A stretch of DNA of 64,000 bases. Origin: Tegillarca granosa (lineage: Eukaryota). Each line of letters starts with the position of its first letter. Position 1 is the first letter of the stretch. The translations under genes were made by a program, and so were the position numbers. The DNA lies in NCBI GenBank assembly GCA_029721355.1, contig CM056605.1, positions 4,406,108 through 4,470,107 on the forward strand. The letters are read 5' to 3'. Positions 16,297 through 61,858 of the stretch are shown piece after piece. The notes beneath the pieces were generated by a model, which worked only from the letters and a program-made list of their open reading frames with translations, was not told the origin of the DNA and did no database searches.

Positions 16297-16302
<6 letters not shown>

Positions 16303-16377
<75 letters not shown>
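16303..16377. repeat. (AT)n microsatellite.
   Basis: About 37 AT repeats. Confidence 0.95.
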
Positions 16378-16380
<3 letters not shown>

Positions 16381-16431
16381 AATATAAAATATTTAGCAAA
16401 AATACCTATTTAATTATGATGTGCCAAATGA

Positions 16432-16570
16432 GCACATTTCAAAAATTCATTCTTCGCCAGACAAAAAACATAAGCCAAACAGTTAATAAATTGATGAATC
16501 CAAAGTTTCAGAATTATATGAATCCAAATCCGAATAAGGAATGCTTTGCATCAGGGAACAAACCTTAATT
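16432..16570 (-). mobile_element. Partial copy of the MITE-like family.
   Basis: Contains 'cataagccaaacagtt.ataaattgatgaatccaaagtttcagaattatatgaatccaaatcc...aaggaatgctttgcatcaggg', which is the reverse complement of the body of the 18055 copy. Confidence 0.6.
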
Positions 16571-16859
16571 TTCAAAAAAGTTAAAAAACTAAGATCGCTA
16601 AATATTTTCTGATCTATTCAAGTTTATTCAATTTATTACTCTCAGCCACTCAAAGAGTGGAACATGAGGTCATATAATGTACAATATTACATTGCCCAAC
16701 AATCTCACAAATAAAACACAATTTGTAACCTACCAGTTTCGATTGGGAATTTATGATTAGATGTTCTGAGCTTACAAATATCTATCGATTTAGAAAAATC
16801 TATCTTAAGTAAATAGTCCTCAAGTTTAAATTCGTCTTTAAAACTGTCCTTTTGAAGAA

Positions 16860-18720
16860 ACAAAATTACTTGACCAGTTTTGTAAAAAATATATCTTCAT
16901 ATACTCTTTCAAACAAAAACTTGTATGATATTAAATCTATAATATGTTGGCAGTGCCATAAAGTACCAAGATCATCTTTGTTTAACATAGTTTCTATATG
17001 TAGCCATGGTGACATAATATCACCAGACTGGTGCAAAGATAATACAATTTTATACATAAATGGTGAAAACTTGTTACAGTTAGGCTGAGCTAAATTACAC
17101 CAAAAATTATACATTCTTTGATATATTTTGGTATACAGCGGAAAACGTTCAAACTCACCATAAACTATATAATTTGGAGTTGATTTCCTAAGCTTTAAAA
17201 TACGTTTACAAAAATCTAAGTGTATACCATCTATTATATTTAAATTTTCGAAACCCCAAATTTCACAAGATTTAAGTAATAATGATACCACAAGACTATC
17301 AAACAACTCTTATTGTAAATCTGTTGGTAATTGAAAATACCTTATTTTACTTAATAAGGCGTACGTTGCCTTTATTGAATCTAAAAACGGTACTTAGATA
17401 TGTAAATGTATCTACTACCTCTATTGGCTGGTTGCCAATAGTAAAATTGTACTGGCGTTTACATTTTCGTGTATAGAATACAACAACTTTGGTTTTTGCT
17501 ACATTAATCTTAACTTCCATAAGGTACAATAATCATAAAATGCAGACAAGGAATTTTGTAAACAGTGTTAAGAATCTGACAATAGCATAGTATTATCGGC
17601 GTACAATAGAAAAAATAACTTGATAAAAATGTCCAATTTAACCAAGATTTTCCCTTTGTCTCACACCAACATTACAACTAAAAAAATAAAGTCCACCACC
17701 AACCTTAACACAGAATTTGATTGATTTATACATATTAAAAATAACATCAAACCTTTCACCAGTTATACCACAGTCAATAATTTTTTTTCCATAGGCCTGC
17801 TCTCCAGACTTTGTCAAATGCACACTTTAAGTCTATAAAGACAACTTTTTACCATGACTAAAATATAAAGTAACAATAGAATACAGAATAAAAATATTAT
17901 CCAGGGCAGAGTGGCCTTTCCTGAATCCTGCTTGTGCATCATTTATAAGATTTTCCTCTTCAGTATATTTCTTAAGGCGACTGTTGAGAATGTTGTAAAC
18001 AATTGCCAAAACAACTATAATTACCAGGATCCTTTACCGACCCCTTGTTTTTATAAATATGTTTAACTCCCCGAAGGTATCCATAACTCGGTAGGCAGTA
18101 CTTTGTGCTGTCAGAAAATGTACCATTTAGCAAAATTTTCAGCCGTCTAAAATTTGAAATTTATTTAAAACTAAGGTTTGTTCCCTCATGCAAAGCATTC
18201 CTTAGCTGGATTTGGATTTATATAATTTTGGAACTTTAGATTCATTATTTTCAAATGTTTGGCTTATGTTTTTTATCTATCAAACTTTTCGGTCTTAGTT
18301 TCACTGATGAGGAATAAATTTCCGAAATGTGCACATCTGGCACATCAAAATTTAACTGGTATTTGTGTTATATATTTAACAATACCAACTAACCATGAAT
18401 CCGGCACTTTGCCGGAGTTCAAAATAAGATTGAATATTTTAAAATATAATGGTAAAAAATATTCAGATATATATATTTATGATATATTCATTAAAGTTTT
18501 ATCTAAACCTGCTGCTTTGTTACATTTTTACTTTTTAATAGCAGCAATGATTTCATCAATAGTGATAGAACAATTCAAAATATCACTTGTATTTACACTT
18601 TTAGCTACATTACAATTATTTACATGTATTAAATCATCGTCAGAGTCATTAATATTATTAAGATACATAAAATGTTCGCACATACCTTCAACTAATGTAT
18701 GTTCATCGTCAACTACACAT
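16860..18720 (-). mobile_element. Degraded non-LTR (LINE) ORF2 reverse-transcriptase remnant, interrupted by a MITE insertion at 18055-18385.
   Basis: Minus-strand translation shows the RT N-terminal segment 'ITIDEIIAAIKK.KCNKAAGLDK' (18440-18720), then 'LINDAQAGFRKGHSALDNIF' (17900-17960), 'GVRQRENL' (17640-17700), 'KTKVVVFYTRK..IGNQPIEVVDTFTYLSTVF' (17347-17529) and 'SLLLKSCEIWGFE..HLDFCKRILKLRKSTPNYIVYGEFERFPL' (16866-17306). This is the canonical LINE RT motif order. The frames are broken by several shifts. Confidence 0.75.
18055..18385 (+). mobile_element. Near-complete MITE-like element.
   Basis: Head 'ccccgaaggtatccataactcggtaggcagtactttgtgctgtcagaaaat'. Body '..catgcaaagcattccttagctggatttggatttatataattttggaactttagattca..ggcttatg..tatctatcaaacttttcgg..cactgatgaggaataaatttccgaaatgtgcacatctggcacatcaaaatttaactggtatttgtgttatatattt'. 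The same sequence is seen at 7 other loci in both orientations. Confidence 0.75.
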
Positions 18721-19200: not shown

Positions 19201-20159
19201 TCTTTGTTCCTTTCATTCTCAAAATTGACTTTCACGTGACGGGTGAAGCTAGCTAAACAGGAGGTGCTTACCCTTCCGGAGTACCCGGCCTCACTTCCTT
19301 GATGGAAGTTCACGTGTATCACATATTTTGCCAGTTTGCAAAGTTTTTACTTTGTTTTTGGGATTGTGATATGGACAAGGACTGGTATGTTTGTTTTATT
19401 ATTATCTCCCATTAGTCTATTTAACACTGTCCAGAGTGTTTTACTATCTCGTTTTTTCACATTACGTAGTTCTTATCCTATCGAATGTTTATGTTTACGG
19501 AAGTAATAATGTAATGTACGTCTATATACAGAAGCCTTTTCTTTCAATACACTTTTATTTACTAGTGTTTTGTTTCGCTTGAATAACTCCCGTGCTTCAT
19601 GAAACGCGACATTCCTTTCCGAACCATGATTTGAAGTTAAAGACATTTCCCTTATGCGTCACTTTAAGTCTATTATTTCATACAGTTTTGCCAATGTCCA
19701 CAAGAATATTTTTAATTGTGTTAACTACAAAATTAACTACATATTCACTCGGCTAATCCAGAGAATTGTCAATGAACGTCAATAAATCATCCACAGGAGT
19801 GTTTTTAACTTCAGTAATATATTCTTCAACATTGTTTTATATCATTTTATATATTCATTTGGATTTGAACCAAAGTCATTACTTTTTGGAACTTGTAATT
19901 TATTCAAAATGAAAAACTTATACAACAATGTGCGTCAGAAAAAAGTTATTCAAAGTCCATAATTTTCAATTCTGTAACTAACGGAAATAGACGTGAAGAA
20001 CATAGCACATAATCCACAACGTTACTGTCTTTACAAGTTGTTTAAACAATAATATAGTCCTTATTTAATCTACCATTTGCAATAAATAATTATTTTTACA
20101 CATTTCTAAAAAACAATATCCAAATACAGTAGGTTTACCTATATCATGTATATGGTACA

Positions 20160-20575
20160 TTTTCTGACAGCACAAAGTGTTGCCTACTGGGTACTACCCC
20201 TGAGCGGGTACCGCTGCTGGTTTAGTAAAACTCCCCGAGGGTATCCATAACTCAGTAGGCAGTACTTTGTGCTGTCAGAAAATATACAATTTATCAAAAT
20301 TTTCAGTCGTCTAAAATTTGAAATTTATTTAAAACTAAGGTGTTTTTCGGTCTTAGTGACACTGATGAGGAATGAATTTCCGAAATGTGCACATCTGGCA
20401 CATCAAAATTTAACTGGTATTTGTATTATATATTTACGAATGCCCTCGGCGAGTTTTAATTCACTAGCATGGTACAGGCTCAGGGATATTAAATAATTTG
20501 AAAAAATACCTGTATAAATTTAACGTCCCTTATGTGTACATTTCGGAAATTTATTCCTCATCAGTGACGTGAAAA
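20160..20575 (+). mobile_element. MITE-like copy with a complete head hairpin, an internal deletion and an inverted partial core at its 3' side.
   Basis: 'ttctgacagcacaaagtgttgcctactgggtac' (20160) and 'ctcagtaggcagtactttgtgctgtcagaaaat' (20250) form a stem of about 33 bp. The body runs 20290-20440. The reverse-complement core fragment 'cacatttcggaaatttattcctcatcagtgac' lies at 20535-20575. Confidence 0.7.
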
Positions 20576-22609: not shown

Positions 22610-22864
22610 TAGGGTCCTTGATTAGCCTAGGCGTGCAATATTCCTAAGTCAACAATTATTTGTAAGCAACTTGCTTTGTTGAAGAAACTAGTTCCCATAA
22701 GATAAGCTCTGTCATTGGGCAATGCCTTTTATTTTTGTTGGGTCTGTTGAGAAATAACTTGAATGAGAACTGTGCACTTTGCATAAACCCAAACAAAAAT
22801 TAAAGTCAATGCTTATAATCAAATATCATACTTAAATATATACCACAAATAAAAAAGTTGAAAA

Positions 22865-23430
22865 TTAATGAATCTTAAGTTCCAAAATTATATGAATCCA
22901 AATCCATCTAAGGAATGCTTTGCATGAAAGGACAAACCTGTTTTAAATAAATTTCAAAAATTAAGATGACTGAAAATTTTGCTAGATGGTATATTATCTG
23001 ACAGCACCAAGTAATACCTACTGAGTTATTGATACTATCGGAGAATTCACTCCACCACCAACGGTACCCGATCAGGGGTAGTGAATATTCTACACAAATA
23101 CCTGATGAATTTTGATGTGCCGTATGTTTACATTTCGGAAATTTATTCCTCATCAGTGACACTAATGGCCAAAAAGTTTGATAGATAAAAAAATCATAAG
23201 CTAAACAGTTGAAAATTACTGAATCTAAGTTCCAAAATTATATGAATCCAAATCCAGCTAAGGAATGCATTGCATGAAGGAACAAAACTTAGTTTTATAT
23301 AAATTTCAAAAATTAAGACCGCTAAAAATTTTGCTAAATGGTATATTTTCTGACAGCACAAAGTACTGCCTACTGAGTTATAGATACCTTGGGGAGTTAA
23401 CTTCACCAGCAGCGGTACCAAAAATCAAAG
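22865..23430 (-). mobile_element. Two tandem copies of the MITE-like family (head-to-tail dimer).
   Basis: The copies lie at 22865-23170 and 23190-23430. Each carries the reverse complement of 'ggtaccgctgctggtg..ctcagtaggcagtactttgtgctgtcagaaaat' and of the body '..ggaatgctttgcatga..cactgatgaggaataaatttccgaaatgt..'. Confidence 0.7.
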
Positions 23431-24924
23431 TCAACTGCAAAACATTTAATGTTTCTTAAACAAATTAGTTCAATGTTAACACTTTAATCATTGCCTTTGC
23501 GTTTGCCATAATTGAGGTATAAGTGCAAATATGAATCCGAACATAGAGAATCAGTCGTTTTTTGTATTTCAAGCTCACAAGAATAAATTTAATTTACATA
23601 TAATTCAAATTTGGAATTTTTGAGAACGAACATTTGGTTGATGCCAGATGTAGAAAACACTTTTTTCAGAATAAGACTGAAGGCTATCTTTGAACACTGT
23701 CAAAATTCATGTGAGAACCACTGATGATAAGTAAGCAGTAACCTTAGAGGAACCTGCTATATATAGTCCTTTTATGGGTTTTTGTGAAGTTTTGAAATCC
23801 AAGTAAGTTTTAAATCGATACCGACAGACTCAAGAAATTCCCTATACTCGTAATTGTAAAGAACTTTGTCTTTAGAAAAACGAAGCTCCTTAATAAGACA
23901 TTCAACGTAAAATCTCTTACAAATGAGAATAATTTTTTGAAAGCTTTATCATCTAGAACAACAATGCATCTGTTATGCATGTATGTAAGGATTTCAGAAA
24001 TCACCAACCTATTGGGAATCATTAACCAGCTGTGCAAGGTCCAACAGTTTGAAAACAAATTGAAAATATTAAACAAAGAGCGTACGAAACTTTCCTTACA
24101 AAACTTGAGTGTAAAGTTTGATGACATTCAAAAGGAACTATCTAACCAATATCAGCTTTTTATAATAAAAGGAATTCGCAACATGATATATTGACCCTGG
24201 CTGTGTAAAAATGCCGTTTATAAACAGTCTTGTCTACCAAATACAATAGAACATTACAGGAGTAATTAAATAAAATGTTAAATGTTAAATGTTTTTAAAT
24301 AATTTCTTGCTGTACACCCGTAACAAGTTGGTTGCGGATGCATTTGTAGTTTCCGTACGCCTGTTTCCTCCGAGCATTTGACTAATTGGGAGGCAGTGAT
24401 TTTATACAAATGTCAACTTAGAAAAACGTTCCTTAAGCACGTTTTAACTCTCTTACTTACGTAATATGTATCAATTGTGTTATATATTTACTACTATTGT
24501 TTATATTAAGTGTACTCCCATCATCATTTTCCATATTCTACCGTCATCCAATATTGTATGTATTTTTAGCTAAAAGCTGACACATTTGCCTAATTGAAAT
24601 AAAATTGATTGTAAAAATACAAATTTATTTTGAGAACGCTGAATACAATACCAATGAACATTTTCATATTTCATGACAATTTTTGTTATAAGTGAATTTA
24701 AAGCATTATAAACAGTAAGTAATTAGTATGTAATAAACTTAATTCAAGTGGTTAATGTAGATACCGAAATCACTATACATGTTATGTAAGTAAATTATGA
24801 TTGTAAAATTTTGAGAGGTTTTGAGTTTACAAAACTATTATTGAAAATTATTTTGTTTTGTAAGGAAGTCATTGGTGGATAAGGAAAAACATGTACTTTA
24901 AGAAGAGCATTTACCTATTAAGTG

Positions 24925-24963
<39 letters not shown>

Positions 24964-26237
24964 AAAATAAAAATAAATATAAAAGTTTTAACAAAAGCTA
25001 TACCAGCTGTAGAAATAAAGTATAATTTAAAACTTTAGGTATTCATTTGTTGATATATTATGTAATCCTTCTAGAGCAATTGATCGATTGACGACAATCT
25101 GCATTTGTCGTGTAAAAACACCAGAAACCTTTAAAATGGAATCCAAATGTGCAATATTTTAGATAGGTAAAATTGAGTTCAATATTTCTATATTTTAAAA
25201 AGAAGAAAATTTTCAAATGAAAAATATTTTCTTCGCAAAATTAAACGCATCCAAAATCACGAAACAATGTCATATGTTTGTCATATGCATATTTGGAAAA
25301 ATCCACATTTAAACAAAATCATTCAAAAATTTCAAAAATCCATGAAAAATCTACTGACCTAATGGGGAAAAATAACCAGACTTGTCAAAAAGTTTCTTTA
25401 ATTGTGTGCATATAACAATTTTAACTGTTTTCAACAAGATAACAAATTCACTATCAAAATCACCCCTTAAAAATCCGGACAACACTAAATACCAAATGAT
25501 TAACTTATGGCTCATAACTACATTTTTAATTAAAAATTTAAAACTTTTTAACTATATCTATTGCATCTTAGGGCATCAATTTTTCATATTTCTTTTAAAT
25601 TCAACACCATATAGTTAGCAAATGTGACTAAAATTAAATTCATTTGACCTTTATTAACCTTAAAATAACTTGATGCAATCTTTGGTGAGGCCCAAATGAA
25701 TCCTTGGAGTAATTAAAGTTAGACTTTTTTTTCCAAAAAAACTGTTCTATGTAACGGAAGAATTCAGAGAATGAAAAATTTTTCATTTAAAAATAAAAAT
25801 TGATTAAGTCAATGTTTTTTAATTTGATCCTAATGTTATTTTTATGAGGAAAGTTTAGAATAAAGAAAATATTTAGAAAAACCGTGTTACAAACAATTAT
25901 GGACCAATAGTATTTAAAAAGGACCAAATAAGACAAATAAAGATAAGCATATTTTGATACAACTTATTGTATATTTTCTACTTTCGACGGGTACTGCACT
26001 ATACTGTACTATACATTAAACTAAATCAAAAGAAGTTGATTTTAACATTAAAAAAGTGCGTATTTGTGATATATTTATAGACCACTAGTTGTCAAATAAT
26101 ACGGATGTTTTGGAACCTCTGTTACTACCATCAGGAAGTTCATAATTTATGGTACAAATATGCATGCATAATTGCTTGGTTGTTATCATATCCTTGTATT
26201 GTATCATGTTTTTTTAATTTTATTTATTTTTTGGGAG

Positions 26238-26480
26238 GGGGGTCCTCGGTGGCCGAGTGGTCTAAAGCGCGCTTACGGATCATAGTGCCTCTCACCGCCT
26301 AGGTTCGAATCCCACTCGGGACAGATCCTAGTGTGAGAACGTTTGTCAGTTCGCTTGCCGAAAGTCGGTTGTTTTCTCCGGGCACCCCGGTTTCTCCACC
26401 ATCCCAGAACAGACCGCCTCGAAATAAGTGAAAGATTCTTGACTGGGGCGTAAAACATCATTACTTAACTCCACTCCCCT
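26238..26480 (+). mobile_element. tRNA-derived SINE, family A, full-length copy.
   Basis: The head 'ggggtcctcggtggccgagtggtctaaagcgcgcttacgg...cctaggttcgaatccc' has tRNA-like D and T arms. The body is '..ttctccgggcaccccggtttctccacc..gactggggcgtaaaacatcattacttaactccactcc'. It is nearly identical, in inverse orientation, to 57306-57546. Confidence 0.8.
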
Positions 26481-26639
26481 ATCATGTTTTTGAATACGTT
26501 AGTAGTTGCTTAGGTTGCAAATCTATTTTTTCTAGTTCAAATGATTAAAAAAAAAGACGAAATCCATTATTTCAAAACTCAACCCTATTTGATATATTCT
26601 AGGATTACTTTCATTGGATCACTTAAATAATTCCCATAC

Positions 26640-26850
26640 CACAAACACGTACAAATATATAACAAATATCTGCTGAATTTTGATGTGCCAGATGTGCACA
26701 TTTCGGAAATCATTCCTCATCAGTGACACTAGGGGCCGAAAAGTTTGATAGATAAAAATGCATACGCCAAACAGTTGAAAATTAATGAATCTAAAGTTCC
26801 AAAATGATATAAATCCAAATCCAGCTAAGGAATGCTTTGCATGAGTAAAG
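26640..26850 (-). mobile_element. MITE-like family copy.
   Basis: Contains 'atctgctgaattttgatgtgccagatgtgcacatttcggaaatcattcctcatcagtgacactaggggccgaaaagtttgatagataaaaatgcatacgccaaacag...ccagctaaggaatgctttgcatgag'. Confidence 0.7.
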
Positions 26851-31629: not shown

Positions 31630-33524
31630 TAAAATCCTAACAAGAAGTTTGTGTATACATAAATCCATAATTATCTTTTTCAGCATATCAAACCCATACA
31701 TAGAAATTAGAAGTCTAGATTCCATTTTTTTTGCCACATTAAACTATCGTAGAAACACTTTTATTATTTTGAAATAAAAAAGTTATTTAACAAATTATTA
31801 TCAGATAATATTTGTGACACCTGTTGGTGGGTGTATGGACACAAAGTTTACAAGCAATTACTTGACATTATAAGGTTAAATGTTAATAGCTTTTCATGTA
31901 CAAATGTATTGAGGAGTAAAATGTCACCTGATATACAAATGTAACTTTAGCAACTCTCTGCCAATATAACCAAGACACTAAGACAAAATTCAAAAGTCTA
32001 ATAACCGAACTGGCTTATTAGTTACATTGAAACGTTTCATAATGCAAGCCTGATTCTATGTCACTGTCATCAGAATCGAGTTGAATAATGAAAGGATATA
32101 ACTGATCTGTCATATTGTCAGATTCATTATACACGTACTTAACACGTAGAAACTTTAACGGGTATTTGTAAATATTTACCTTCAACTTTAATGGTAGGTT
32201 TTACATCTTCTTTCTAATTTCCATCACCAGTTCCTAAAATGCATCTTGTATAAAAGCATTCACACCAGTTTATTTAAATATTCTACTATACTTGATTTTA
32301 TTTGTGTCCATAACGGTTCAATTAGATTTAAAATAGTGCTTTACAGGTGTTTGTAAAACAAAGTGACCATAACTGTTTGCATTTTTATTGTTTTATAAGT
32401 TCTTGGGGGTTTATTTAGTTCCATTACTTCATATAATTGAACCTTTTTAAGGGAAATGTTTATATCATGCTTTTTAAGTTATTTTTTGCATAAAATGGTT
32501 ACGGGAATTCATGTTCCGGTTAACATATATTTCTGTTTTAATATTGTGATTAGATGCATTGTCAATTATTATCAGACTGGGTTCTTCAAGAGCTAAACAC
32601 ATCTGCATTTAAAACCAACCTAAAACAAAGTCAAATTTATTTAACTGTGATAATCACCATCTTTATGTTTACCAATAAATACCAAGTCACATTTGTGAAT
32701 AAATCCCTTTGCAGGACCTGGATTGGATTGTGAGTCGTTGACATTTACCGGAAGGCATGTTTGGAAGAACGACATTTCTGTCTTCATCAGCATTGTGACC
32801 AAGTTGTCAACATTTGAGTAACCAACCATAAATTTTATGATGATTTTAATAGACACGAGTTTCATCCAAATACACTATATTAAACATATTTCTCTATTTT
32901 TTTCATTTTAACAAAAACAATTTCATCCTTAAACCCAATATTAGGTCTTTCCGTCAAAACTTTTCTGTTACCTGTTGGTTTTCGTAATACTTACACAAGA
33001 TCAAGTAAAAAAAATTCTGATAGTTGAATTGCTTACATCAATATAGTAAGAAATTTCATACTGTATATTTAAAATTGATGGATTTTCTTTTGCGATTAAA
33101 TTTGTAAACAGTTTCTCATTAATTCTCTATTCAAGTAATCACTAAAGTAAATCAGTAAGTTTTCACTAAAATTGTTCCCTTAAAACTTATAACATTTCCA
33201 ACTTTGGATTGAAAGACTTGTAAAATTTCTGCAGTTTTTGCGACATTTTAGTTCTGACTATTGCCTATTTTTCTGTTACTTAAGCCTCCTTACAAAATAC
33301 TGGTATAAATGATAAATAACTGTTGCTTTGGTACTGTTGATTTTTACAAATACATATACATGTAATAATTTATGTTCACGCGATGAATTCTGTTCTTGCT
33401 TTTTTTTTTTACTCATTTCACAGAAATAACAAATGGACTTTAAAACCTCAGATATTCAAGTTTAAATGTATATATAAATAAATGATAAGTACAATCGTTT
33501 TACCTACGTGGCTGAGATTTTATA

Positions 33525-34100
33525 AGTTTTATTTGTCATGCAAAGCATTCCTTGGCTGGATTTGGATTCATACAATTTTGAAACTTTGAATTTATTAATT
33601 TTTAACCGTTTGGCTCATTTTTTTGATCTATCAAACATTTTGGCCCCTAGTGTCACTGATTAAGAATAATTTTCCGAAATGTGCACATATGGCACATCAA
33701 AATTAAACAGGCATTTTTGTTATATATTTGCTTCCTCTGAACGGATACCGCTGCCGGTGGAATAAAACTTCCCAAGGGTATCTATACTTAAATAGGCAGT
33801 ACTTTATGCTGTCAGAAAATGTACAATTTAGCAAAATGTTCAGACATCCTAATTTGTGAAATTTATTTAAAACTAAGGTTTGTTTCCACATGCAAAGTAT
33901 CCCTTAGCTAGATTGGATTACAATAATTTTGGAATTTTGGTTTCATTAATTTTCAACCGTTTGGCTTATGTTTTTTTATATATATCAAACTTCTCGGCTC
34001 CTACTGTCACTGATGAGAAATGATTTTTCGAAATGTGCACATTTGGACATTTGATGTGGACATGAAAATTTAATAGGTGTTTTGTTATATATTTATATGT
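33525..34100 (+). mobile_element. Two tandem copies of the MITE-like family (head-to-tail dimer).
   Basis: Copy 1 ends '..ggcacatcaaaattaaacaggcatttttgttatatattt' at 33740. Copy 2 begins 'ggataccgctgccggtgg..cccaagggtatctatacttaaataggcagtactttatgctgtcagaaaat' and ends '..aatttaataggtgttttgttatatatttatatgtag' at about 34100. Confidence 0.7.
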
Positions 34101-34999: not shown

Positions 35000-35900
35000 A
35001 TGTTCCCACTGTCTTATTTATGTTGTGTTGTTCCATGTTACTTTCATATGTTATGCAATTTTGTGTTCATAGCATTTTATTTATTTCTGTGTTTCGATTA
35101 TGTTGTATATGTTTTTTTTGTTTTTGTTTTCATTGCATTTTATTTATTTCTTTGTTTCCAGTATGCTATATGTGTTCTGCAGTTTTTTTGTTCATTTTAT
35201 TGTTTTATTTTTTTATCCCATTATGTTGTACATGTTCTGTAGTTTTTGTTTTTATTGTATATTTTTATGTTCTTAGTATGTTGTATGTGTTCTGTAGCTT
35301 TGTGTTCATTCTATATTATTAATTTTTTTTGTGTTCCCAGTATGTTGTATGTGTTCTGCATATTTTGTGTTCATTGTATTTTTTTATTATACATTTCTGT
35401 GTTCCGAGTATGTTGTATGTGTTCTGCGCATTTTGTGTTAATTGTATTTCATTCATATCTCTGTTCCCAGTATATTGTACATGTTTTGTCGTTTTTGTGT
35501 TCATCATTTTTTTTTTCATTTTTATGTTTCCAGTATGTTGTATGTGTTCAGCAGTTTTTGTGTTCATTGTTTATTTTATTAATTTCTGTGTTTCCAGTAT
35601 GTTGTATATGTTCTGCAGGTTTTGTTTTCTTTGTTTTTTATTCATTTATTTCTTTTTTCAAGTATGCTGTATATATTCTGTAGTTTCATTCAGAGTTCCC
35701 TGTATATTTGAACAGATAGTTTATTTTGTGCTCAGTTTATTTTATGTCAGTTCTATCATTTAAATTTGCGTCCCCTATATCTTTTACATGTTCTGTTGTT
35801 TTATTTGTCTTTCTTGTATCTTTCATATGTTTAGAAGTTTTATTCTGTGTTCCATGTATATATTCTGGTAATTTATTCTCCGTTCTTTTAGTTTTTTATA
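35000..35900. repeat. Degenerate minisatellite with a unit of about 56-70 bp and about 14 copies. It is T-rich on the + strand.
   Basis: The core 'ccagtatgttgtatgtgttctgcag.ttttgtgttcattgtattt..tttctgtgtt' recurs at about 35159, 35215, 35271, 35337, 35407, 35467, 35531, 35593 and 35660. It yields overlapping artefactual ORFs (35020-35763). Confidence 0.75.
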
Positions 35901-38204: not shown

Positions 38205-39095
38205 CAACAACATCCTAGTACAGGTAATTATTATAACATCCAAGTACAGGTAATTATCATAACATCCAAGTACAGGTAATTATCATAACATCCAAGTACA
38301 GGTAATTATCATAACATCCAAGTACAGGTAATTATCATAACATCCAAGTACAGGTAATTATCATAACATCCAAGTTCATGTAATTATTATAACTTCCAAG
38401 TACAGGTAATTATTATAACATCCAAGTACAGGTAATTATCATAACATTCAAGTACAGGTAATTATCATAACATCCAAGTAGAGGTAATTATCATAACATC
38501 CAAGTACAGGTAATTATCATAACATCCAAGTACATGTAATTATTATAACTTCCAAGTACAGGTAATTATTATAACATCCAAGTACATGTAATTATTATAA
38601 CATCCAAGTACAGGTAATTATCATAACATCCAAGTACAGGTATATATTATAACATCCAAGTACAGGTAATTATCATAACATCCAAGTACAGGTAATAATT
38701 ATAACATCCAAGTACAGGTGATTATCATAACATCCAAGTACAGGTAATTATTATAACATCCAAGTACAGGTAATTATCATAACATCCAAGTACAGGTAAT
38801 TATTATTACATCCAAGTACAGGTAATTATTATAACATCCAAGTACAGGTAATTATCATAACATCTAAGTACAGGTAATTATCATTACATCCAAGTACAGG
38901 TAATTATCATAACATCCATTTACAGGTAATTATCATAACATCCAAGTACAGGTAATTATCATAACATCCAAGTGCAGGAAATTATCATTACATCCAAGTA
39001 CAGGTAATTATCATAACATCTAAGTACAGGTAATTATCATAACATCCAAGTACAGGTAATTATCATAACATCCAAGTACAGGTAATTATTATAAA
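38205..39095. repeat. 26-bp satellite, about 34 copies.
   Basis: Unit 'acatccaagtacaggtaattatcata' with point variants (tta/tca, aca/tca). Confidence 0.9.
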
Positions 39096-40367: not shown

Positions 40368-40868
40368 TATCTATGTTCCATGTTCTGTAGTCTATGTTAT
40401 TTATGTTCTGTATTCTATGTTATATATGTTCTGTATTCTATGTTATATATGTTCTATATCTTCTATGTTGTCTATGTCCTGTATTCTATGTTATCTATGT
40501 TACGTATTCTGTGGTATCTATGTTCCATATTCCATGTTATCTATGTTCAATATATTTTATGTTATCTTTGTTTTACATATCCTATGTTATCTTTGTTCTG
40601 TATATTATGGTATGTATGTTCTATATATTCTATGTTATCTATGTTCTATATATTCTATGTTATCTATGTTCTATATATTCTATGTTATCTATGTTCCATT
40701 TTCAATGTTATTTAATGTTCTATATATTCTATATTATGTATGTTCTATATATTCTATGTTTTCTATGTTATGTGTTCTATGGTATCTATGTTCTGTCTTC
40801 TATAGTAATTTTGTTCCATTTTCCATGTTATTTTATGTTCTATATATTCTATGTTACCTTTTTCATAT
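40368..40868. repeat. 23-bp satellite, variant A.
   Basis: Unit 'ctatgttatctatgttctgtatt', about 21 copies, T-rich on the + strand. Confidence 0.85.
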
Positions 40869-43800
40869 AATCTACCGAAATGTTTTATATTAGTTTTGAT
40901 GTTTTTTAATTCTCGGTTACGTATGTTCTACATTCTTTTTTACCTTTGTTCTATATCTTGTTTTATCTTTGTTCTACATTCTTTTTTATCTTTATTCTAC
41001 ATTCTGTTTAATCTTTATTCTTCATTCTGTTTTATCTTTGTTCTATATTCTATTTTATCTTTGTCCTTTATTCTGTTTTATCTTTGTTCTATTTTGTGTA
41101 ATCTTTGTTCTATATCTTGTTTTATCTTTGTTCTATATTCTGTTTTCTCTTTGTTCTACATTCTGTTTTATCTTTGTTCTATATTCTGTTTTATCTTTGT
41201 ATTACATTCTGTTTTGTCTTTGTTCTATATTCTGTTTTATCTTGTTCAATATTCTGTTTTATCTTTGTTCTATATTTTGTTTTATCTTTGTCCTATATTC
41301 TGTTTTATCTTTGTTCTATTTTGTGTAATCTTTGTTCTATATTTATTTTAATCTTTGTTCTATATCTTGTTTTATCTTTGTTCTATATTCTGTTTTCTCT
41401 TTGTTCTACATTCTGTTTTATCTTTGTTCTATATTTTGTTTTATTTTTGTTCTATATTCTGTTTTATCTTGATCAATATTCTGTTTTATCTTTGTATTAC
41501 ATTCTTTTATATCTTTGTTCTATATTTTGTTTAATCTTTGTTCTACATTCTTTTTTATCTTTGTTCTACATTCTGTTTTATCTTTTTTCTACATTCTGTT
41601 TTATCTTTGTTTTATATTCTGTTTTATCTTGGTTCTATGTTTTGTGTTATCTTTGTTCTATATTCTGTTTTATCTTGTTCAATATTTGTTTTATCTTTGT
41701 TCAACATTCTTTTTTACCTTTGTTCTATATTTTGTTTTATCTTTGTTCTACATTCTTATTTATCTTTATTCTACATTCTGTTTTATCTTTGTTCTATATT
41801 CTGTTTTATCTTTGTTCTATATTTTGTGTAATCTTTGTTCTATATTCTGTTTTATCTTTGTTCTATATTCTGTGTAATCTTTGTTCTACATTCTATTTTA
41901 TCTTGTTCTACATTCTGTTTAATCTTTGTTGTATATTCTGTTTAATCTTGTTCTATATTCTGTTTTATCTTTGTTCTACATTATTTTATATCTTTGTTTT
42001 ATATCTTGTTTAATCTTTGTTCTACATTCTTTTTTATCTTTGCTCTATATCTTGTTTTATCTTTGTTCTACAGTCTTTTTTATCTTTATTCTACATTCTG
42101 TTTTATCTTTGTTCTACATTCTTTTTTATCTTTATTCTACATTCTGTTTTATCTTTGTTCTACATTCTGTTTTATCTTTGTTCTATATTCTGTTTTATCT
42201 TTGTTCTATATTCTTTTTTATCTTTATTCTACATTCTGTTTTATCTTTGTTCTATATTCTGTTTTATCTTTGTTGTATATTTTGTTTATCTTTGTTCTAT
42301 AAATTGTTTTATCTTTGTTGTATATTTTGTTTATCTTTGTTCTATATTTTGTTTCATCTTTGTTCTATATTTTGTTTTATCTTTGTTCTATATTCTTTTT
42401 TATCTTTATTCTACATTCTGTTTATCTTTGTTCTATATTCTGTTTTATCTTTGTTCTATATTTTGTTTTATCTTTGTTGTATATTTTGTTTATCTTTGTT
42501 CTATATTTTGTTTTATCTTTGTTGTATATTTTGTTTATCTTTGTTTTTAATTTTGTTTCACCTTTGTTCTATATTTTGTTTTATCTTTGTTGTATATTCT
42601 TTTTTATCTTTATTCTACATTCTGTTTTATCTTTGTTCTATATTTATTTTAATCTTTGTTCTATATTTTGTTTTATCTTTGTTCTATATTCTGTTTTCTC
42701 TTTGTTCTACATTCTGTTTTATCTTTGTTCTATATTTTGTTTTATTTTTGTTCTATATTCTGTTTTATCTTGATCAATATTCTGTTTTATCTTTGTATTA
42801 CATTCTTTTATATCTTTGTTCTATATTTTGTTTAATCTTTGTTCTACATTCTTTTTTATGTTTGTTCTACATTCTGTTTTATCTTTTTTCTACATTCTGT
42901 TTTATCTTTGTTTTATATTCTGTTTTATCTTGGTTATATGTTTTGTGTTATCTTTGTTCTATATTCTGTTTTATCTTTGTTCTATATTCTGTTTTATCTT
43001 GTTCAATATTTGTCTTATCTTTGTTCAACATTCTTTTTTACCTTTGTTCTATATTTTGTTTTATCTTTGTTCTACATTCTTATTTATCTTTATTCTACAT
43101 TCTGTTTTATCTTTGTTCTATATTCTGTGTAATCTTTGTTCTATATTCTGTTTTATCTTTGTTCTATATTTTGTGTAATCTTTGTTCTACATTCTATTTT
43201 ATCTTGTTCTACATTCTGTTTAATCTTTGTTGTATATTCTGTTTAATCTTGTTCTATATTCTGTTTTATCTTTGTTCTACATTATTTTATATCTTTGTTT
43301 TATATCTTGTTTAATCTTTGTTCTACATTCTTTTTTATCTTTGCTCTATATCTTGTTTTATCTTTGTTCTACAGTCTTTTTTATCTTTATTCTACATTCT
43401 GTTTTATCTTTTTTCTACATTCTTTTTTATCTTTATTCTACATTCTGTTTTATCTTTGTTCTACATTCTGTTTTATCTTTGTTCTATATTCTGTTTTATC
43501 TTTGTTCAATATTCTTTTTTATCTTTATTCTACATTCTGTTTTATCTTTGTTCTATATTCTGTTTTATCTTTGTTGTATATTTTGTTTATCTTTGTTCTA
43601 TAAATTGTTTTATCTTTGTTGTATATTTTGTTTATCTTTGTTCTATATTTTGTTTCATCTTTGTTCTATATTTTGTTTTATCTTTGTTCTATATTCTTTT
43701 TTATCTTTATTCTACATTCTGTTTATCTTTGTTCTATATTCTGTTTTATCTTTGTTCTATATTCTGTTTTATCTTTGTTGTATATTTTGTTTATCTTTGT

Positions 43801-45725
43801 TCTATATTTTGTTTTATCTTTGTTGTATATTTTGTTTATCTTTGTTTTTAATTTTGTTTCACCTTTGTTCTATATTTTGTTTTATCTTTGTTGTATATTC
43901 TTTTTTATCTTTATTCTACATTCTGTTTTATCTTTGTTCTATATTTATTTTAATCTTTGTTCTATATTTTGTTTTATCTTTGTTCTATATTCTGTTTTCT
44001 CTTTGTTCTACATTCTGTTTTATCTTTGTTCTATATTTTGTTTTATTTTTGTTCTATATTCTGTTTTATCTTGATCAATATTCTGTTTTATCTTTGTATT
44101 ACATTCTTTTATATCTTTGTTCTATATTTTGTTTAATCTTTGTTCTACATTCTTTTTTATCTTTGTTCTACATTCTGTTTTATCTTTTTTCTACATTCTG
44201 TTTTATCTTTGTTTTATATTCTGTTTTATCTTGGTTATATGTTTTGTGTTATCTTTGTTCTATATTCTGTTTTATTTTTGTTCTATATTCTGTTTTATCT
44301 TGTTCAATATTTGTCTTATCTTTGTTCAACATTCTTTTTTACCTTTGTTCTATATTTTGTTTTATCTTTGTTCTACATTCTTATTTATCTTTATTCTACA
44401 TTCTGTTTTATCTTTGTTCTATATTCTGTTTTATCTTTGTTCTATATTTTGTGTAATCTTTGTTCTATATTCTGTTTTATCTTTGTTCTATATTCTGTGT
44501 AATCTTTGTTCTACATTCTATTTTATCTTGTTCTACATTCTGTTTAATCTTTGTTGTATATTCTGTTTAATCTTGTTCTATATTCTGTTTTATCTTTGTT
44601 CTACATTATTTTATATCTTTGTTTTATATCTTGTTTAATCTTTGTTCTACATTCTTTTTTATCTTTGCTCTATATCTTGTTTTATCTTTGTTCTACAGTC
44701 TTTTTTATCTTTATTCTACATTCTGTTTTATCTTTTTTCTACATTCTTTTTTATCTTTATTCTACATTCTGTTTTATCTTTGTTCTACATTCTGTTTTAT
44801 CTTTGTTCTATATTCTGTTTTATCTTTGTTCAATATTCTTTTTTATCTTTATTCTACATTCTGTTTTATCTTTGTTCTATATTCTGTTTTATCTTTGTTG
44901 TATATTTTGTTAATCTTTGTTCTATAAATTGTTTTATCTTTGTTCTATATTTTGTTTCATCTTTGTTCTATATTTTGTTTTATCTTTGTTCTATATTCTT
45001 TTTTATCTTTATTCTACATTCTGTTTATCTTTGTTCTATATTCTGTTTTATCTTTGTTCTATATTCTGTTTTATCTTTGTTGTATATTTTGTTTATCTTT
45101 GTTCTATAAATTGTTTTATCTTTGTTGTATATTTTGTTTATCTTTGTTCTATATTTTGTTTCATCTTTGTTCTATATTTTGTTTTATCTTTGTTCTATAT
45201 TTTGTTTTATCTTTATTCTACATTCTGTTTATCTTTGTTCTATATTCTGTTTTATCTTTGTTCTATATTCTGTTTTATCTTTGTTGTATATTTTGTTTAT
45301 CTTTGTTCTATATTTTGTTTTATCTTTGTTGTATATTTTGTTTATCTTTGTTTTTAATTTTGTTTCACCTTTGTTCTATATTTTGTTTTATCTTGTTGTA
45401 TATTCTTTTTATCTTTATTCTACATTCTGTTTTATCTTTGTTCTATATTCTGTTTTATCTTTGTTCTATATTTTGTGTAATCTTTGTTCTATATTCTGTT
45501 TTATCTTTGTTCTACATTCTTTTTTATCTTTATTCTACATTCTGTTTTATCTTTGTTCTATATTCTGTTTAATCTTTGTTCTACATTCTTTTTATCTTCA
45601 TTCTACATTCTGTTTTATCTTTGTTCTATATTCTGTTTTCTCTTTGTTCTATATTTTGTTTTATCTTTGTTCTATATTTTGTTTTATCTTTGTTCTATAT
45701 TTTGTTTTATCTTTGTTATGTTTTA
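40869..45725. repeat. 23-bp satellite, variant B, about 210 monomers, with a higher-order repeat of about 1301 bp.
   Basis: Monomer 'ttttatctttgttctacattctg'. Diagnostic stretches such as 'ctatatttattttaatctttgttc' recur at about 41340, 42640 and 43940. Identical artefactual + strand ORFs recur at 41515/42816/44117, 41994/43295/44619 and 42017/43318/44642, giving spacings of 1301 and 1301-1324 bp. Confidence 0.9.
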
Positions 45726-48359: not shown

Positions 48360-49425
48360 TTAGTCAGATAACAACCAATTGTTAATACAGAAACAACTTC
48401 TTGTTTTTATCAACAACCATTTGTCATTGAACAAGCAAACAATTATCAATCATCAAAGAAAAATAAATAACTCATCAACATATAACCAACTGTCAATCAT
48501 GAAAGAAAATCAATTACCCATCAACAAATAACCAACTGTCAATCATCAAACAAAATCAATTATTTATCAATATATAACCAACTGTCAATCATCAAACAAA
48601 ATCAATTACCCATCAATATATAACCAACTGTCAATCATCAAACAAAATCAATTACCTATCAACATATAACCAACTGTCAATCATCAAACAAAATCAATTA
48701 CCCATCAATATATAACCAACTGTCAATCATCAAACAAAATCAATGACCCATCAATATATAACCAACTGTCAACCATCAAACAAGATCAATTACCCATCAC
48801 TTAATAACCAGCTGTCAATTATCAAACAAAATCAATTACACATCAACGTATAACCAACTGTCAATCATCAAACAAAATCAATGACCCATCAACATATAAC
48901 CAACTGTCAATCATCAAACAAAATCAATTACCCATCAACATATAACCAACTGTCAATCATCAAAGAAAATCAATGACCCATCAACATATAACCAACTGTC
49001 AATCATCAAACAAAATCAATGACCCATCACATATAACCAACTGTCAACCATCAAACAAAATCAATGACCCATCAACATATAACCAACTGTCAATCATCAA
49101 ACAAGATCAATGACCCATCAACATATAACCAACTGTCAATCATCAAACAAAATCAATGACCCATCAACATATAACCAACTGTCAATCATCAAACAAAATC
49201 AATTACCCATCAATAAATAACCAACTGTCAATTATCAAAGAAAATCAATTACCCATCAACATATAACCAACTGTCAATCATCAAACAAAATCAATGACCC
49301 ATCAACATATAACCAACTGTCAATCATCAAACAAAATCAATGACCCATCAACATATAACCAACTGTCAATCATCAAACAAAATCAATTACCCATCAACAT
49401 ATAACCAACTGTCAATCATCAAACT
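48360..49425. repeat. 46-bp satellite of about 22 copies, ending about 800 bp upstream of the GPCR start codon.
   Basis: Unit 'caactgtcaatcatcaaacaaaatcaattacccatcaacatataac', with the variants 'aatgaccc' and 'aattaccc'. There is 1 G per unit on the + strand. Confidence 0.9.
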
Positions 49426-50224: not shown

Positions 50225-51882
50225 ATGGATTGGATGATGACCGGAATTATTTTAAATCACTCCCAATTAGAAGTGTCGTCAGCATCCGAGGATATAAATT
50301 ACACTTACAGATATTTAAATGAGTCAGATCATTTAGAGTATGGAAACATGACTTCGGTTTCTGAAGTTTTAAACACTGCGATAACTGTTTTCGGAATTTT
50401 TGTAATAGTGGCAACAGTTTTAGGAAATCTTTTAGTTATTGCTGCAATATTTTGTGACAGGAGGTTGAGACGAGTTGGTAACATTTTTATTGTTAACTTG
50501 GCAATAAGTGACATTCTAGTTGGGGTACTCGTTACCCCCTTAGCGTTGTTTTATCAACTTTCAGACTACTGGCCATTTGGATTACAGTTATGTAACTTTT
50601 GGGTATCTGTTGATGTTATATGCTGCACAGCTAGCATTGTTAATTTGTGTGTAATAAGTTACGACCGATATAATGCCATAATTAGACCTTTAAAATATGC
50701 TCGACAGAGAACGGCTAAAAGAGCCTTCGCACTTGTCGTCTTTGTATGGCTTTATGCCGTTGTAATCGCTGTCCCGCCATTTTTTGGTTGGAGAAAACAA
50801 TCGGAGATAGATAATCATTTAATATGCGGGATTTCGCAAGAACTTGGATACACTTTTTATTCTACAATTGCTGCATTTTACTTACCTTTGTTGATTCATG
50901 ATTTTCTTTTATGCCAAAATATTTCGAGTGACAAGTAAAAGAGGCAAGCAATGGGTCCGTGGACCAGGTTCTAGTAGATTACAGAGCCATAAGTGGGGTA
51001 AATTGCCAAAATCAGACGGTTGCTTGTTGTAGATTTTTGTTAAATAGGTTACGGTCGGAAAATCCACAAAGATTGAGACAAGATTCAACAACTTCTACCA
51101 CGTCATCAACGATACATAGGCGTAGTACAGTTGAAATGCCTTCCGATATCCGTACGGGAACTTTTTTGCTAGGTGCCAGAAACAGTTCAGTTTGTTCAAC
51201 GGCTGACGTTGTAATCGAAATTTCGCAAGGTAGGCGAAAACAAACAATCCAGAGACGAATGTTTCAGAGACAAATTTCAAACTTAACAAGCGATTCAAGC
51301 GGAACTTGTTCAACGAGTACTACAGGAACATCGGAGACATCTTTCTCGGATTCATCTTCGGATCGCCGATCTATTCAGCGAGCATCAAATGTTTTGCATA
51401 ATTTAGTAGCTGCTAATTTAATCGAAATTGCATCATTGCAAGAATCGCTTAAGGCTGTAAAATTTACTCAGCGCCCTCGTGATGTTCAATGTGCTTCCAG
51501 TGGCGATGAATTGGAAAGAGAAAAGGAAATACCACCAGTATTAAAAGAGGAGGAAAAGGAAGAAACCCCTCTTCCGGACTTGCCTTTAAAAAGAAAATGT
51601 AAAAACTTTTCTTTACCACAAGAGAGACGAGCAGTTAAAACATTAGGGATTGTGGTAGGATGTTTTGTTGTATGTTGGGTTCCGTTTTTTGTTGTGGAAT
51701 TATTAAAACCTTTATGTGTTGATTGTTATATTGACCCGATTATAAAGAATACTGTTATGTGGTTAGGATATTGCAACTCCGCGTGTAATCCAGTAATATA
51801 CACTTTTTTCAATAAGGATTTTAGGTGTGCCTTTAAAAAGATATTCCAGTGTAAAAGTTATGCATCGCCTACATATCTTTAG
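50225..51882 (+). CDS. Intronless biogenic-amine GPCR of the 5-HT1 (serotonin type 1) family. The genomic frame is disrupted by two +1 shifts (50897, and 50932-51029), so this may be a pseudogene or may carry assembly indels.
   Basis: The ATG at 50225 opens an N-terminus with four N-glycosylation sequons (NHS, NYT, NES, NMT). TM1 is 'GIFVIVATVLGNLLVIAAI'. TM2 is 'NLAISDILVGVLVTP'. TM3 is 'WVSVDVICCTASIVNLCVISYDRY' with D3.32 and DRY. TM4 is 'VVFVWLYAVVIAVPPFFGW'. TM5 is 'YSTIAAFYLPLLI' in frame 2 and continues 'MIFFYAKIFRVTSKRGKQ' in frame 3 after an extra 'c' at 50897. ICL3 is long and Ser/Thr-rich, running in frame 1 from before 51031. TM6 is 'KTLGIVVGCFVVCWVPFF'. TM7 is 'WLGYCNSACNPVIYTFFNKDFRCAFKKIFQCK', with NPxxY and a short tail resembling vertebrate 5-HT1A 'NKDFQNAFKKIIKCKF'. 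The stop TAG is at 51880-51882. Confidence 0.8.
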
Positions 51883-60715: not shown

Positions 60716-61341
60716 CACGGTGTTGATATGATTAATACACATTAATGTTGGGGGAGGGGATCCAATAACTATTAATACAAAATATGTGCATAAATGATTG
60801 TTAATGTGAATTTTAACATCTCTATTGTTTTGTTTTTATTTTCAATAAAATTAGATATTTGTCAAGAGAATTTTATGATTTTATTATTTGTATCTAGACA
60901 TCCATGGCTAGAAACAAAACTTCTTTGTGGCTTCAAGGATCCAAAAAGTTAGAAATGTATCATTGTTATGTTATGATAAATATTTTAATGACGGATGCGG
61001 ACAGCCATTTGGTACACTTCTGAAATTAAGGTTGCAGGACTATTGTCACAGATCAGTACAATATGGCGGTACAATAGAATAGAAGCAAACGGTATCTAAA
61101 TCGGATAGAAATGCTTCTGTGTCATATTACAAATTTGTTTAAAGGTACACAAATAATCTACATAATATTGGTTGCTGTGGTGCATTGGTTGGCAATTGCT
61201 ATTTAATGTAAAAAACCGAATGTTTTAAATAAACATCTCTAATAAAGCTTAGGCCATGATGGTATAGTAACCATATGCGTTTGCTGACGGATCACATCAC
61301 TAAACTGGGTTCGAAACCAAACTATTGCAAATTCTGTCAAA

Positions 61342-61600
61342 ATGTAGCAGGTATTTGTTATATATTTATATCAATGTAGCAGGTATTTGTTATATATTTA
61401 TATCAATGTAGCAGGTATTTGTTATATATTTATATCAATGTAGCAGGTATTTGTTATATATTTATATCAATGTAGCAGGTATTTGTTATATATTTATATC
61501 AATGTAGCAGGTATTTGTTATATATTTATATCAATGTAGCAGGTATTTGTTATATATTTATATCAATGTAGCAGGTATTTGTTATATATTTATATCAATT
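61342..61600. repeat. 32-bp tandem repeat of 8 copies, derived from the 3' terminus of the MITE-like family.
   Basis: The unit 'aggtatttgttatatatttatatcaatgtagc' equals the element tail '..caggtatttgt.ttatatattt' plus about 12 bp. Compare 18360-18385, 33715-33745 and 34075-34100 ('ttgttatatatttatatgtag'). Confidence 0.8.
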
Positions 61601-61858
61601 TTTTTGTTGAATGTCAGTGTATTTAATTAGAACTTGGGTATTTCCATCATCTCTGAACGGAATGCCTCAATATAAGCTTCAGAAAGGTTGTTTATAACTC
61701 TAGTAAATTCCTAGTAAAATACACATTTTATTAACGTTAATACTGTTATTTTAAATCATACAAACAAAGCATGACTCTGGTGGAATTGGTGTTTAGAAGC
61801 AATTACTAACTAATAACGTTGTGGTTGCTACAAAAAACTTTTGGCTACAACTATCTTA

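Follow-up and report, generated by a model that had tools for sequence, protein, structure and literature searches.

This report describes a 32-bp minisatellite of Tegillarca granosa and the interspersed repeat family related to it. The array lies in a stretch of 64,000 nucleotides (contig CM056605.1 of assembly GCA_029721355.1, positions 4,406,108 to 4,470,107 of the forward strand), called the window below; this single 64-kb window is the whole basis of the analysis, and positions are counted from its first letter. The repeated unit is homologous to the 3' tail of a ~350-nt family that carries a hammerhead ribozyme motif, and the array interrupts an old tRNA-derived short interspersed element (SINE). 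Most likely, a tail-only retrocopy of the family was inserted into the SINE, and slippage or unequal exchange between the short repeats on its two sides multiplied it later. The family appears to be a non-autonomous retroelement of the kind of the Penelope-like elements and the animal retrozymes that lack long terminal repeats (non-LTR retrozymes). It is filed here as retrozyme-like because its anatomy matches the published descriptions of retrozymes and Penelope-like elements. This explanation as a whole, the origin of the array together with the class of the family, is considered fairly probable.

The array and the source of its unit

Tandem Repeats Finder places the array at 61341-61599 (+), with a period of 32, 8.1 copies, 100% matches and 0 indels. 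A preliminary description of this DNA had put it one base off, at 61342-61600. The array consists of eight units (AATGTAGCAGGTATTTGTTATATATTTATATC), all identical, and a terminal AAT. Its register is exactly (AATGTAG...ATATC)x8 + AAT, and the partial unit that closes the array leaves AAT at both ends of the repeated block. The first unit is entered through TCAAAAT, with two extra A's that match the element, and the internal units read TCAAT. TC is found in every internal junction and, according to the tail alignment, at no other 3' end of the family. The sequences past the other tails are AAC, ACG, GTA, ATATG, AAG and others.

An empirical ranking of windows makes the match between unit and family tail unambiguous. 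When the 31-nt part of the first unit that is not (TA)n is the query, each of the 18 top-ranked windows among 15,876 lies on a family tail (those of copies c26, c23b, c20, c18, and c33), and tail windows make up 0.5% of the total. The first unit with its four upstream nucleotides is identical to c26 at 30/34 positions, and likewise to the consensus. The same stretch shows 73-88% identity to all eight family tails, which is better than AT-rich sequence gives by chance. The 20-mer CAGGTATTTGTTATATATTT is found, with three or fewer mismatches, eight times in the array and once elsewhere in the window (chance expectation 0.04). This lone outside site (26653-26672, minus strand, one mismatch) is the 3' end of c26. 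In blastn the unit matches the family tail with E=4.5e-4. An nhmmer profile search alone gives only E=0.21 for the array, and the result thus depends on a suitable test. The derivation of the unit from the 3' tail of an abundant family, as first proposed, is borne out by these comparisons.

The homology starts at TCAAAAT (61337), and ~28-30 nt of the 32-nt unit are tail. The other 2-4 nt (TC or TCAA) come from target-site sequence. A unit of about 20 nt of tail plus 12 nt had been assumed before; its tail part stands, while the lengths need to be corrected. The original insert would have occupied 61341-61370 (+) and would correspond to the last ~30 nt of the family (AATGTAGCAGGTATTTGTTATATATTTATA). 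If the target duplication is TC only, the insert is 32 nt and starts at 61339.

Two derived characters, AGCAG and a TTTGTTATATATTT that is 2 nt shorter than TTTGTGTTATATATTT, are common to the unit and c26 only. They bear on the question of which element donated the tail. As the homology extends over only 30-34 nt, the donor is not identifiable beyond its 3' module, and non-autonomous retroelements commonly share their 3' ends with partners (PMC4758252, PMC8557442). The seed might then be another element with the same module, such as an autonomous partner (Penelope-like or a long interspersed element, LINE) or a sister family, 5'-truncated to its last ~30 nt. Such a donor is improbable, given that AGCAG and the 2-nt deletion tie the unit specifically to c26 and that no reverse-transcriptase or GIY-YIG open reading frame (ORF), nor any other carrier of the tail, is found in the window.

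The host SINE and the probable steps of array formation

No family body lies beside the array. The flanks align to the family consensus no better than shuffled sequences do (z=0.2 downstream, z=-0.9 upstream), and neither flank recurs in the window within family copies. A diverged family body downstream, to which motifs picked by eye (CTCTGAACGG, TATAACTC.AGTA, and CAAAGCAT) might have belonged, was rejected, since the alignment is no better than with shuffles and CTCTGAACGG is part of the host SINE.

Both flanks belong to a SINE instead. The exact B-box consensus GGTTCGANNCC is found three times in the window against 0.07 expected, and one of the three sites is 20 nt upstream of the array. 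The other two are in intact tRNA-derived SINEs at 26236-26500 (+) and 2335-2060 (-). Both of these are well preserved: they have A and B boxes, and their central domain is the conserved TTCTCCGGG..CCGGTTTC(C)TCC, which we take to resemble the Deu/Nin-DC type; neither copy is called by ARAGORN or Rfam. At the array, the 5' part of the host (61252-61340, +) is a decayed tRNA-derived head with an A-box-like TGGTATAGTAA at 61260-61270 and an exact B box GGTTCGAAACC at 61308-61318. The 3' part (61599-61742, +) is the body of the same SINE and retains a remnant of the TTCTCCGGG..CCGGTTTCTCC conserved domain and ..GCCTCAATATAAG... The boxes and the collinear similarity to the intact copies point to a tRNA-derived SINE as the host. 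The downstream flank aligns to positions 119-205 of the intact copy SINE26 (z=7.5, 0/500 shuffles) and also to SINE2 (z=4.8, 0/500). The upstream flank aligns to positions 35-77 of SINE26, the tRNA-like head (z=2.4, 14/500 shuffles), and is collinear with the downstream part. A tRNA gene or a Pol III unit made of B box, array and T7 was also considered for the locus and discarded: ARAGORN and Rfam find nothing here, the B box belongs to the decayed SINE, and the T7 aligns to SINE sequence.

When the array is deleted, the locus gives one alignment to SINE26 positions 35-205 that is ungapped at the junction and scores 58. When one unit is kept, the score falls to 52 and extra gaps are needed. 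Since the array-free alignment is continuous and a single unit costs both score and gaps, the unit is foreign to the host SINE. At the junction, host ..AAATTCTGTCAA/TTTTTTTGTTGAATGTCAG.. pairs with SINE ..GAACGTTTGTCAG/TTCGCTTGCCGAAAGTCGG... TCAA is single in the SINE (a single TCAG/TCAA in the host alignment) and stands on both sides of the array at this locus. The left TCAA is at 61337-61340 (+), and the right TCAA, the second copy of the duplicated target, is at 61595-61598 (+), followed by the T7 that aligns to TTCGCTT of the intact SINE. Because the family also has TCAAAAT at the start of the homology, these bases would be target duplication and junction microhomology at once. The duplication could be as short as TC.

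These flanks bear directly on the earlier view that the tail of an element was amplified in place. The tail homology is real and family copies are abundant nearby, so that a MITE-like DNA transposon might once have stood here and later lost its body, or diverged too far to be recognised. Yet the family has no terminal inverted repeats and neither flank is family-like. Moreover, the flanks are the two halves of one SINE that join without a gap once the array is taken out, leaving no room for a lost body. Amplification in place is therefore hardly credible.

A second possibility is that the unit arose from the host SINE or from any AT-rich sequence and resembles the tail by coincidence, or, in reverse, that the family took its tail from a minisatellite. 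The segment after the array (AATGTCAGTGTATTT) is loosely like the unit (AATGTAGCAGGTATTT), the window is very rich in minisatellites, and the nhmmer value quoted above is poor. However, nothing in the intact SINE corresponds to the unit, which is far closer to the family tail, at the 30/34 given above, than to the adjacent SINE segment (roughly 14-16 of 26). The ranking of windows and the characters common to the unit and c26 also argue against coincidence. The homology of the first unit to the element exceeds that of the repeated unit, which fits the direction from element to array. Either form of this explanation is highly improbable.

A tail-only retrocopy in the SINE, amplified after its insertion, would have arisen in four steps. 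First, reverse transcription would be primed at the 3' end of the family and aborted after ~30 nt. This stub, presumably a product of abortive target-primed reverse transcription, would then be joined into the old SINE at ...CTGTCAA/TTTTTTT... through the TCAA microhomology, with TCAA (or at least TC) duplicated on both sides; the bases on the two sides can be read in the sequence, and the joining mechanism is our interpretation of them. The resulting sequence, TCAA-AAT...ATA-TC-AAT-TTTTTT, would contain direct repeats (TCAA-AAT ... TC-AAT). Slippage or unequal exchange between these would duplicate a 32-nt unit made of ~28-30 nt of tail and the TC(AA) of the target. Finally, a recent expansion or homogenisation would give eight identical copies. 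That this last step is recent is suggested by the 100% identity of the units, compared with 77-95% for the family copies.

The amplification at the DNA level would follow integration, and two observations favour this order. The TC at the internal junctions is absent from other 3' ends of the family, and the array closes with the partial unit AAT, which is the outcome predicted for slippage between non-contiguous repeats (models in PMC3389668). An incomplete terminal unit and short direct repeats on either side of the unit are features of these models (PMC3389668). SINE-derived satellites have been described with a "longer terminal unit" pattern (PMC10702118). The array has the corresponding features of a transposon-derived minisatellite, namely a unit homologous to part of an interspersed repeat, short flanking direct repeats, and an incomplete terminal unit.

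The main rival to slippage after insertion is formation in one step, in which a Penelope-like or LINE-type reverse transcriptase re-primed or template-jumped on the 3'-terminal ~30 nt and produced eight units in a single event. Such an origin would be akin to the partial tandems of Penelope-like elements and to their so far unexplained "tail" extensions of 30-40 bp. The perfect identity of the units, against 77-95% of the copies to the consensus, would be explained, and the family habitually forms truncated-plus-full tandems as Penelope-like elements do. Its segment from the predicted cleavage site to the 3' end (40 nt) is of a length seen in Penelope-like "tails". The element itself contains TCAA, and the junctions could in principle be derived from it. 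But a template in the element would give junctions of the form ...TTTATA/TCAAAATG, including the two extra A's, and a period of 34 nt; the internal junctions lack those A's. They have instead the TC that no other family 3' end shows. A short array that recently underwent slippage or gene conversion would be expected to show perfect identity just as well, and none of the other tails in the window bears an array of this kind. One-step formation fits the junction sequence less well and is considered unlikely.

Further fragments with only tail-like sequence are at 24464-24490 and 32130-32180; TTGTGTTATATATTTA is exact in one, and the other has AACTTTAACGGGTATTTGTAAATATTTA. Both may be tail-only insertions, of marginal significance when taken singly, and they suggest that stubs of this type are common. 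An (AT)38 microsatellite (16301-16377) starts ~10 nt past the tail of the old copy c16, which suggests that the AT-rich 3' end of the family also seeds microsatellites. A family-wide habit of tail amplification, as the preliminary description proposed, is not demonstrated by the window. Against eight element tails there is one tail-derived fragment that became a minisatellite, and one element tail, that of c16, abuts (AT)38.

The retrozyme-like family and its hammerhead motif

BLAST and profile searches find ~10 copies or fragments of the ~345-350-nt family between 16 and 34 kb, with 77-95% identity to their own consensus. The monomer is 350 nt with a GC content of 35%. The 3' end is fixed (..TATATATTT) in six copies with unrelated flanks, and 5' ends are at consensus positions 17, 88, 131, 139, and 256. 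Copy c18 (18061-18377, +) is slightly 5'-truncated and 95% identical to the consensus. Copy c26 (26647-26848, -), whose tail is closest to the array unit, is 5'-truncated at consensus position 139. The old copy c16 (16385-16608, -) is 77% identical to the consensus and has a degenerate hammerhead core; the (AT)38 tract is within 10 nt of its tail. Candidate target-site duplications are AC/TAC (c20), TCAA (array), and TTTAAC (c18).

Head-to-tail dimers had been reported for the family and are confirmed at 23416-22833 (-) and 33524-34096 (+). With a third at 20570-20432 (minus strand), there are three tandems among ~8 loci. In all three the 5' end of the downstream unit (..CCCCTGAnCGGGTACC..) is complete. 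Two of them begin with a strongly 5'-truncated upstream unit, and the upstream unit of the third, c23b, is short by only ~12-14 nt. In the partial tandem at 33524-34096 (+), the 5'-truncated c33 (33524-33735), with its core mutated to CTGATTA, is directly followed by the full c34 (33747-34096). In the tandem at 22833-23416 (-), c23b (23416-23076) is followed by c23a (23065-22833), which is internally deleted yet retains the tail TATTTGTGGTATATATTTA at 22851-22833. The third locus (20149-20570) is a nested structure. Here a minus-strand partial tandem, made up of 20570-20484 (tail part and hammerhead motif), 20469-20437 (head), and 20192-20149, is interrupted at consensus position 40/42 by plus-strand c20 (20199-20436, consensus positions 138-243 deleted). 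The duplication at the c20 insertion is only AC/TAC. Alternatively, this locus could be a head-to-head inverted arrangement of the Penelope type.

A type I hammerhead motif is located 40 nt upstream of the 3' end in every reasonably intact copy (18298-18343 in c18, 26729-26685 in c26, 34004-34049 in c34, 23162-23117 in c23b, 20356-20401 in c20, and 20570-20523 on the minus strand in the upstream copy c20r). It reads GUGUCA-CUGAUGA-GGAA(uaaau)UUCC-GAAA-AUG(ugca)CAU-H-UGGCAC, which contains the conserved core of this ribozyme type in full. Helix I (GUGUCA/UGGCAC) has 6 bp and helix II (GGAA/UUCC) has 4 bp. Helix III (AUG/CAU) is short, with the palindromic tetraloop UGCA. The nucleotide H17 is C, A, or U across copies and never G. 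The descriptor CTGATGA-N10-16-GAAATG-N4-CAT matches six copies at the same position, with 0.00 expected. Pair cells of helices I, II, and III are 87% paired, compared with 15-63% in slid controls. Helix II has two compensatory changes from G-C to A-U pairs, and c20r has a compensated helix I (ACGUC/GACGU).

The predicted cleavage site is 40 nt from the family 3' end. In c18 it falls between 18337 and 18338, leaving a 40-nt tail at 18338-18377. The array homology starts 8-10 nt downstream of this site, without exact coincidence. Another parse was considered first, with helix III as AUGUGC/GCACAU and cleavage at CATC/AAAA, exactly where the array homology starts; it was given up since helix I does not form. 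The motif may be an active ribozyme and the family may be mobilised by a Penelope-like reverse transcriptase.

The anatomy does not support the label "MITE-like" in the preliminary description. No terminal inverted repeats were found at the element ends in an inverted-repeat search of three copies, and the only end-related inverted pair (20235/20434) is explained by nesting within an inverted copy. A fixed 3' end, variable 5' ends, and a hammerhead motif are found instead. A tRNA-derived SINE is also excluded as a label, as ARAGORN finds nothing and no tRNA, 5S, or 7SL match is obtained at E<=10 for the c23 tandem. Helitrons and Helentrons are recognised by 5'-TC ... CTRR-3' ends and a subterminal 3' hairpin, or by conserved outer flanks of the HINE type around internal tandem repeats. 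The ends of the family read ..CCCCTGAGCGGG and ..TATATATTT, and the flanks of its loci differ from one another and are unrelated, with no conserved outer flanks, so that this label was rejected too. Bivalve MITE-like elements with tandem repeats, such as pearl and DTC84, have internal repeats between conserved flanks and in some cases inverted termini. Like the family they are short non-autonomous molluscan repeats tied to tandem repeats, but the family is without conserved outer flanks and inverted termini. Elements of this type are presumably behind the earlier label.

Animal retrozymes are described as tandem repeats of ~300 bp that are low in GC, range from dimers to multimers, and carry type I hammerheads, and ~5000 hammerhead motifs in 350-390-bp repeats are reported from the mussel (PMC7229834). 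The family shares with animal non-LTR retrozymes (Cervera & de la Pena 2020, PMC7229834; bioRxiv 10.64898/2026.07.22.740005) its repeat size, close to that in the mussel. It also has a type I hammerhead with CUGAUGA, GAAA, H17 and helices I-III in order, and short (150-450 bp), low-GC, head-to-tail repeats without LTR, primer-binding site, or polypurine tract. Unlike retrozymes, its motif is unscored by Rfam models and its copies are mostly single or dimeric. It also differs in its genomic 3' end, which is fixed and follows the predicted cleavage site by 40 nt.

In Penelope-like elements 5' truncation is heavy, full copies are preceded by truncated ones, and there is a "tail" of 30-40 bp (PMC8557442, PMC3846280). 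In the family, too, 5' truncation is frequent and a truncated copy stands ahead of a fuller one (c33+c34, c20r and the next unit, c23b+c23a). The two are thus alike in truncation, in pseudo-LTR-type tandems, in hammerhead motifs, and in a terminal "tail" of 30-40 bp (PMC8557442, PMC3846280). The 40-nt segment after the ribozyme may, by analogy, correspond to the Penelope-like "tail". The family differs from Penelope-like elements in that the window holds no reverse transcriptase or GIY-YIG ORF. Two family patterns give 0 matches in metagenome contigs and GTDB genomes, proteins spuriously translated from the family give no candidates in a database search, and no family sequence strings were found in the literature.

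Several points weigh against the proposed origin and class. For the array, the flanking direct repeat is only 3-4 nt, below the 5-10 nt of the classical model. Exact slippage from TCAA to TCAA would give a 34-nt unit, and the observed 32 nt needs either pairing of AAT with AAT or a later loss of 2 nt. The upstream host alignment is only modestly significant (z=2.4), and target-site duplications of the other family copies are at chance level in a systematic search of their AT-rich flanks. For the ribozyme, the Rfam hammerhead covariance models give no match in the whole window at the gathering score, nor at E<=10 in the c18 and c23 regions, searched as one 131-nt and one 701-nt stretch. With copies so few and so closely related, the covariation does not reach significance against shuffles. 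The predicted fold of the monomer RNA is unremarkable (z about -0.8), while the circular RNAs of retrozymes are described as highly self-paired; a rod-like circular RNA was accordingly dropped, as the fold is not unusually stable. Finally, one window covers neither other arrays genome-wide nor a partner Penelope-like element.

The array in its surroundings and among known cases

The window is rich in micro- and minisatellites. At least 10 arrays, reported by Tandem Repeats Finder, occupy ~13 kb of the 64 kb. Besides the array described here, they include those at 9515-13214, 40380-45717, 38209-39094, 48446-49424, 35059-35686, 6856-7948, and 175-969. Their units are 35 bp (x106), 23/46/69 bp (x233), 26 bp (x34), 46 bp (x21), 63 bp (x10), 12/60 bp (x91), and 146 bp (x5.4), and their density is exceptional. 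Some units have short motifs in common on opposite strands (e.g., TTATCTTGTTC), by a crude comparison that is unreliable. Kinship of the 26-bp minisatellite (38209-39094) with the family tail was rejected as chance, since only GTACAGGTA.TT is common to both and the flanks are unrelated.

Two protein-coding signals are found elsewhere in the window. At 50225-51882 (+) there is a rhodopsin-family G protein-coupled receptor whose third-loop region is long; judged by the nearest homologue that has a name, it is 5-HT1A-like. Its nearest homologues are molluscan, with 54-62% identity; the public collections searched gave nothing closer, and an exact look-up of the receptor ORF gave no entry. The coding sequence is divided between two ORFs in different frames, which points to an intron, a frameshift, or a pseudogene. 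An ORF of 439 aa with an ATG start (6665-7984, +) spans the 12/60-bp array and has no Pfam match. It is probably a repeat artefact, although it could encode a repetitive protein.

It is reported that ~23% of human mini- and satellites are transposon-derived (PMC3389668). The array resembles these cases (Ahmed & Liang 2012, PMC3389668; Jurka & Gentles 2006, Alu-derived, as cited there) in having a piece of an interspersed repeat as its unit, flanking direct repeats, and an incomplete terminal unit. It is unlike the human cases in that its donor is a tail-only retrocopy nested in another repeat, its flanking repeat is 3-4 nt, and its genome is that of a mollusc. Squamate SINE-derived satellites (PMC10702118) and the TSD1-(SINE-TSD1)n arrays of bivalves (PMC11481361) are similar in their longer terminal unit and in the same target-derived bases between units. 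Unequal exchange between target-site duplications has been proposed as the origin of those arrays (PMC10702118, PMC11481361). They consist of large parts of SINEs or whole SINEs in units of ~100-350 bp, while the unit here is 32 bp and its donor bears a hammerhead.

The array is a clear but ordinary case of a transposon end that seeds a minisatellite. It combines known phenomena and is no new kind of thing, and retrozymes have already been described in molluscs (PMC7229834). It is unusually legible: the host SINE, the ~30-nt insert, the duplicated target bases, and the register are readable from the sequence. Because these parts can be read directly, each step from insertion to array can be reconstructed. 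It is quite unlikely that the array is a direct by-product of retrozyme or Penelope-like integration, through reiterated priming or template jumping on the 30-40-nt post-cleavage segment. If that were true, ribozyme-bearing retroelements would be intrinsic generators of minisatellites in a minisatellite-rich mollusc genome. A more useful by-product than the array itself is the move of a "MITE-like" family to the hammerhead-bearing, retrozyme-like retroelements, where it would probably belong, and this bears on the annotation of mollusc repeats. The family loci are candidates for the production of circular RNA and for the study of how Penelope-like templates are integrated.

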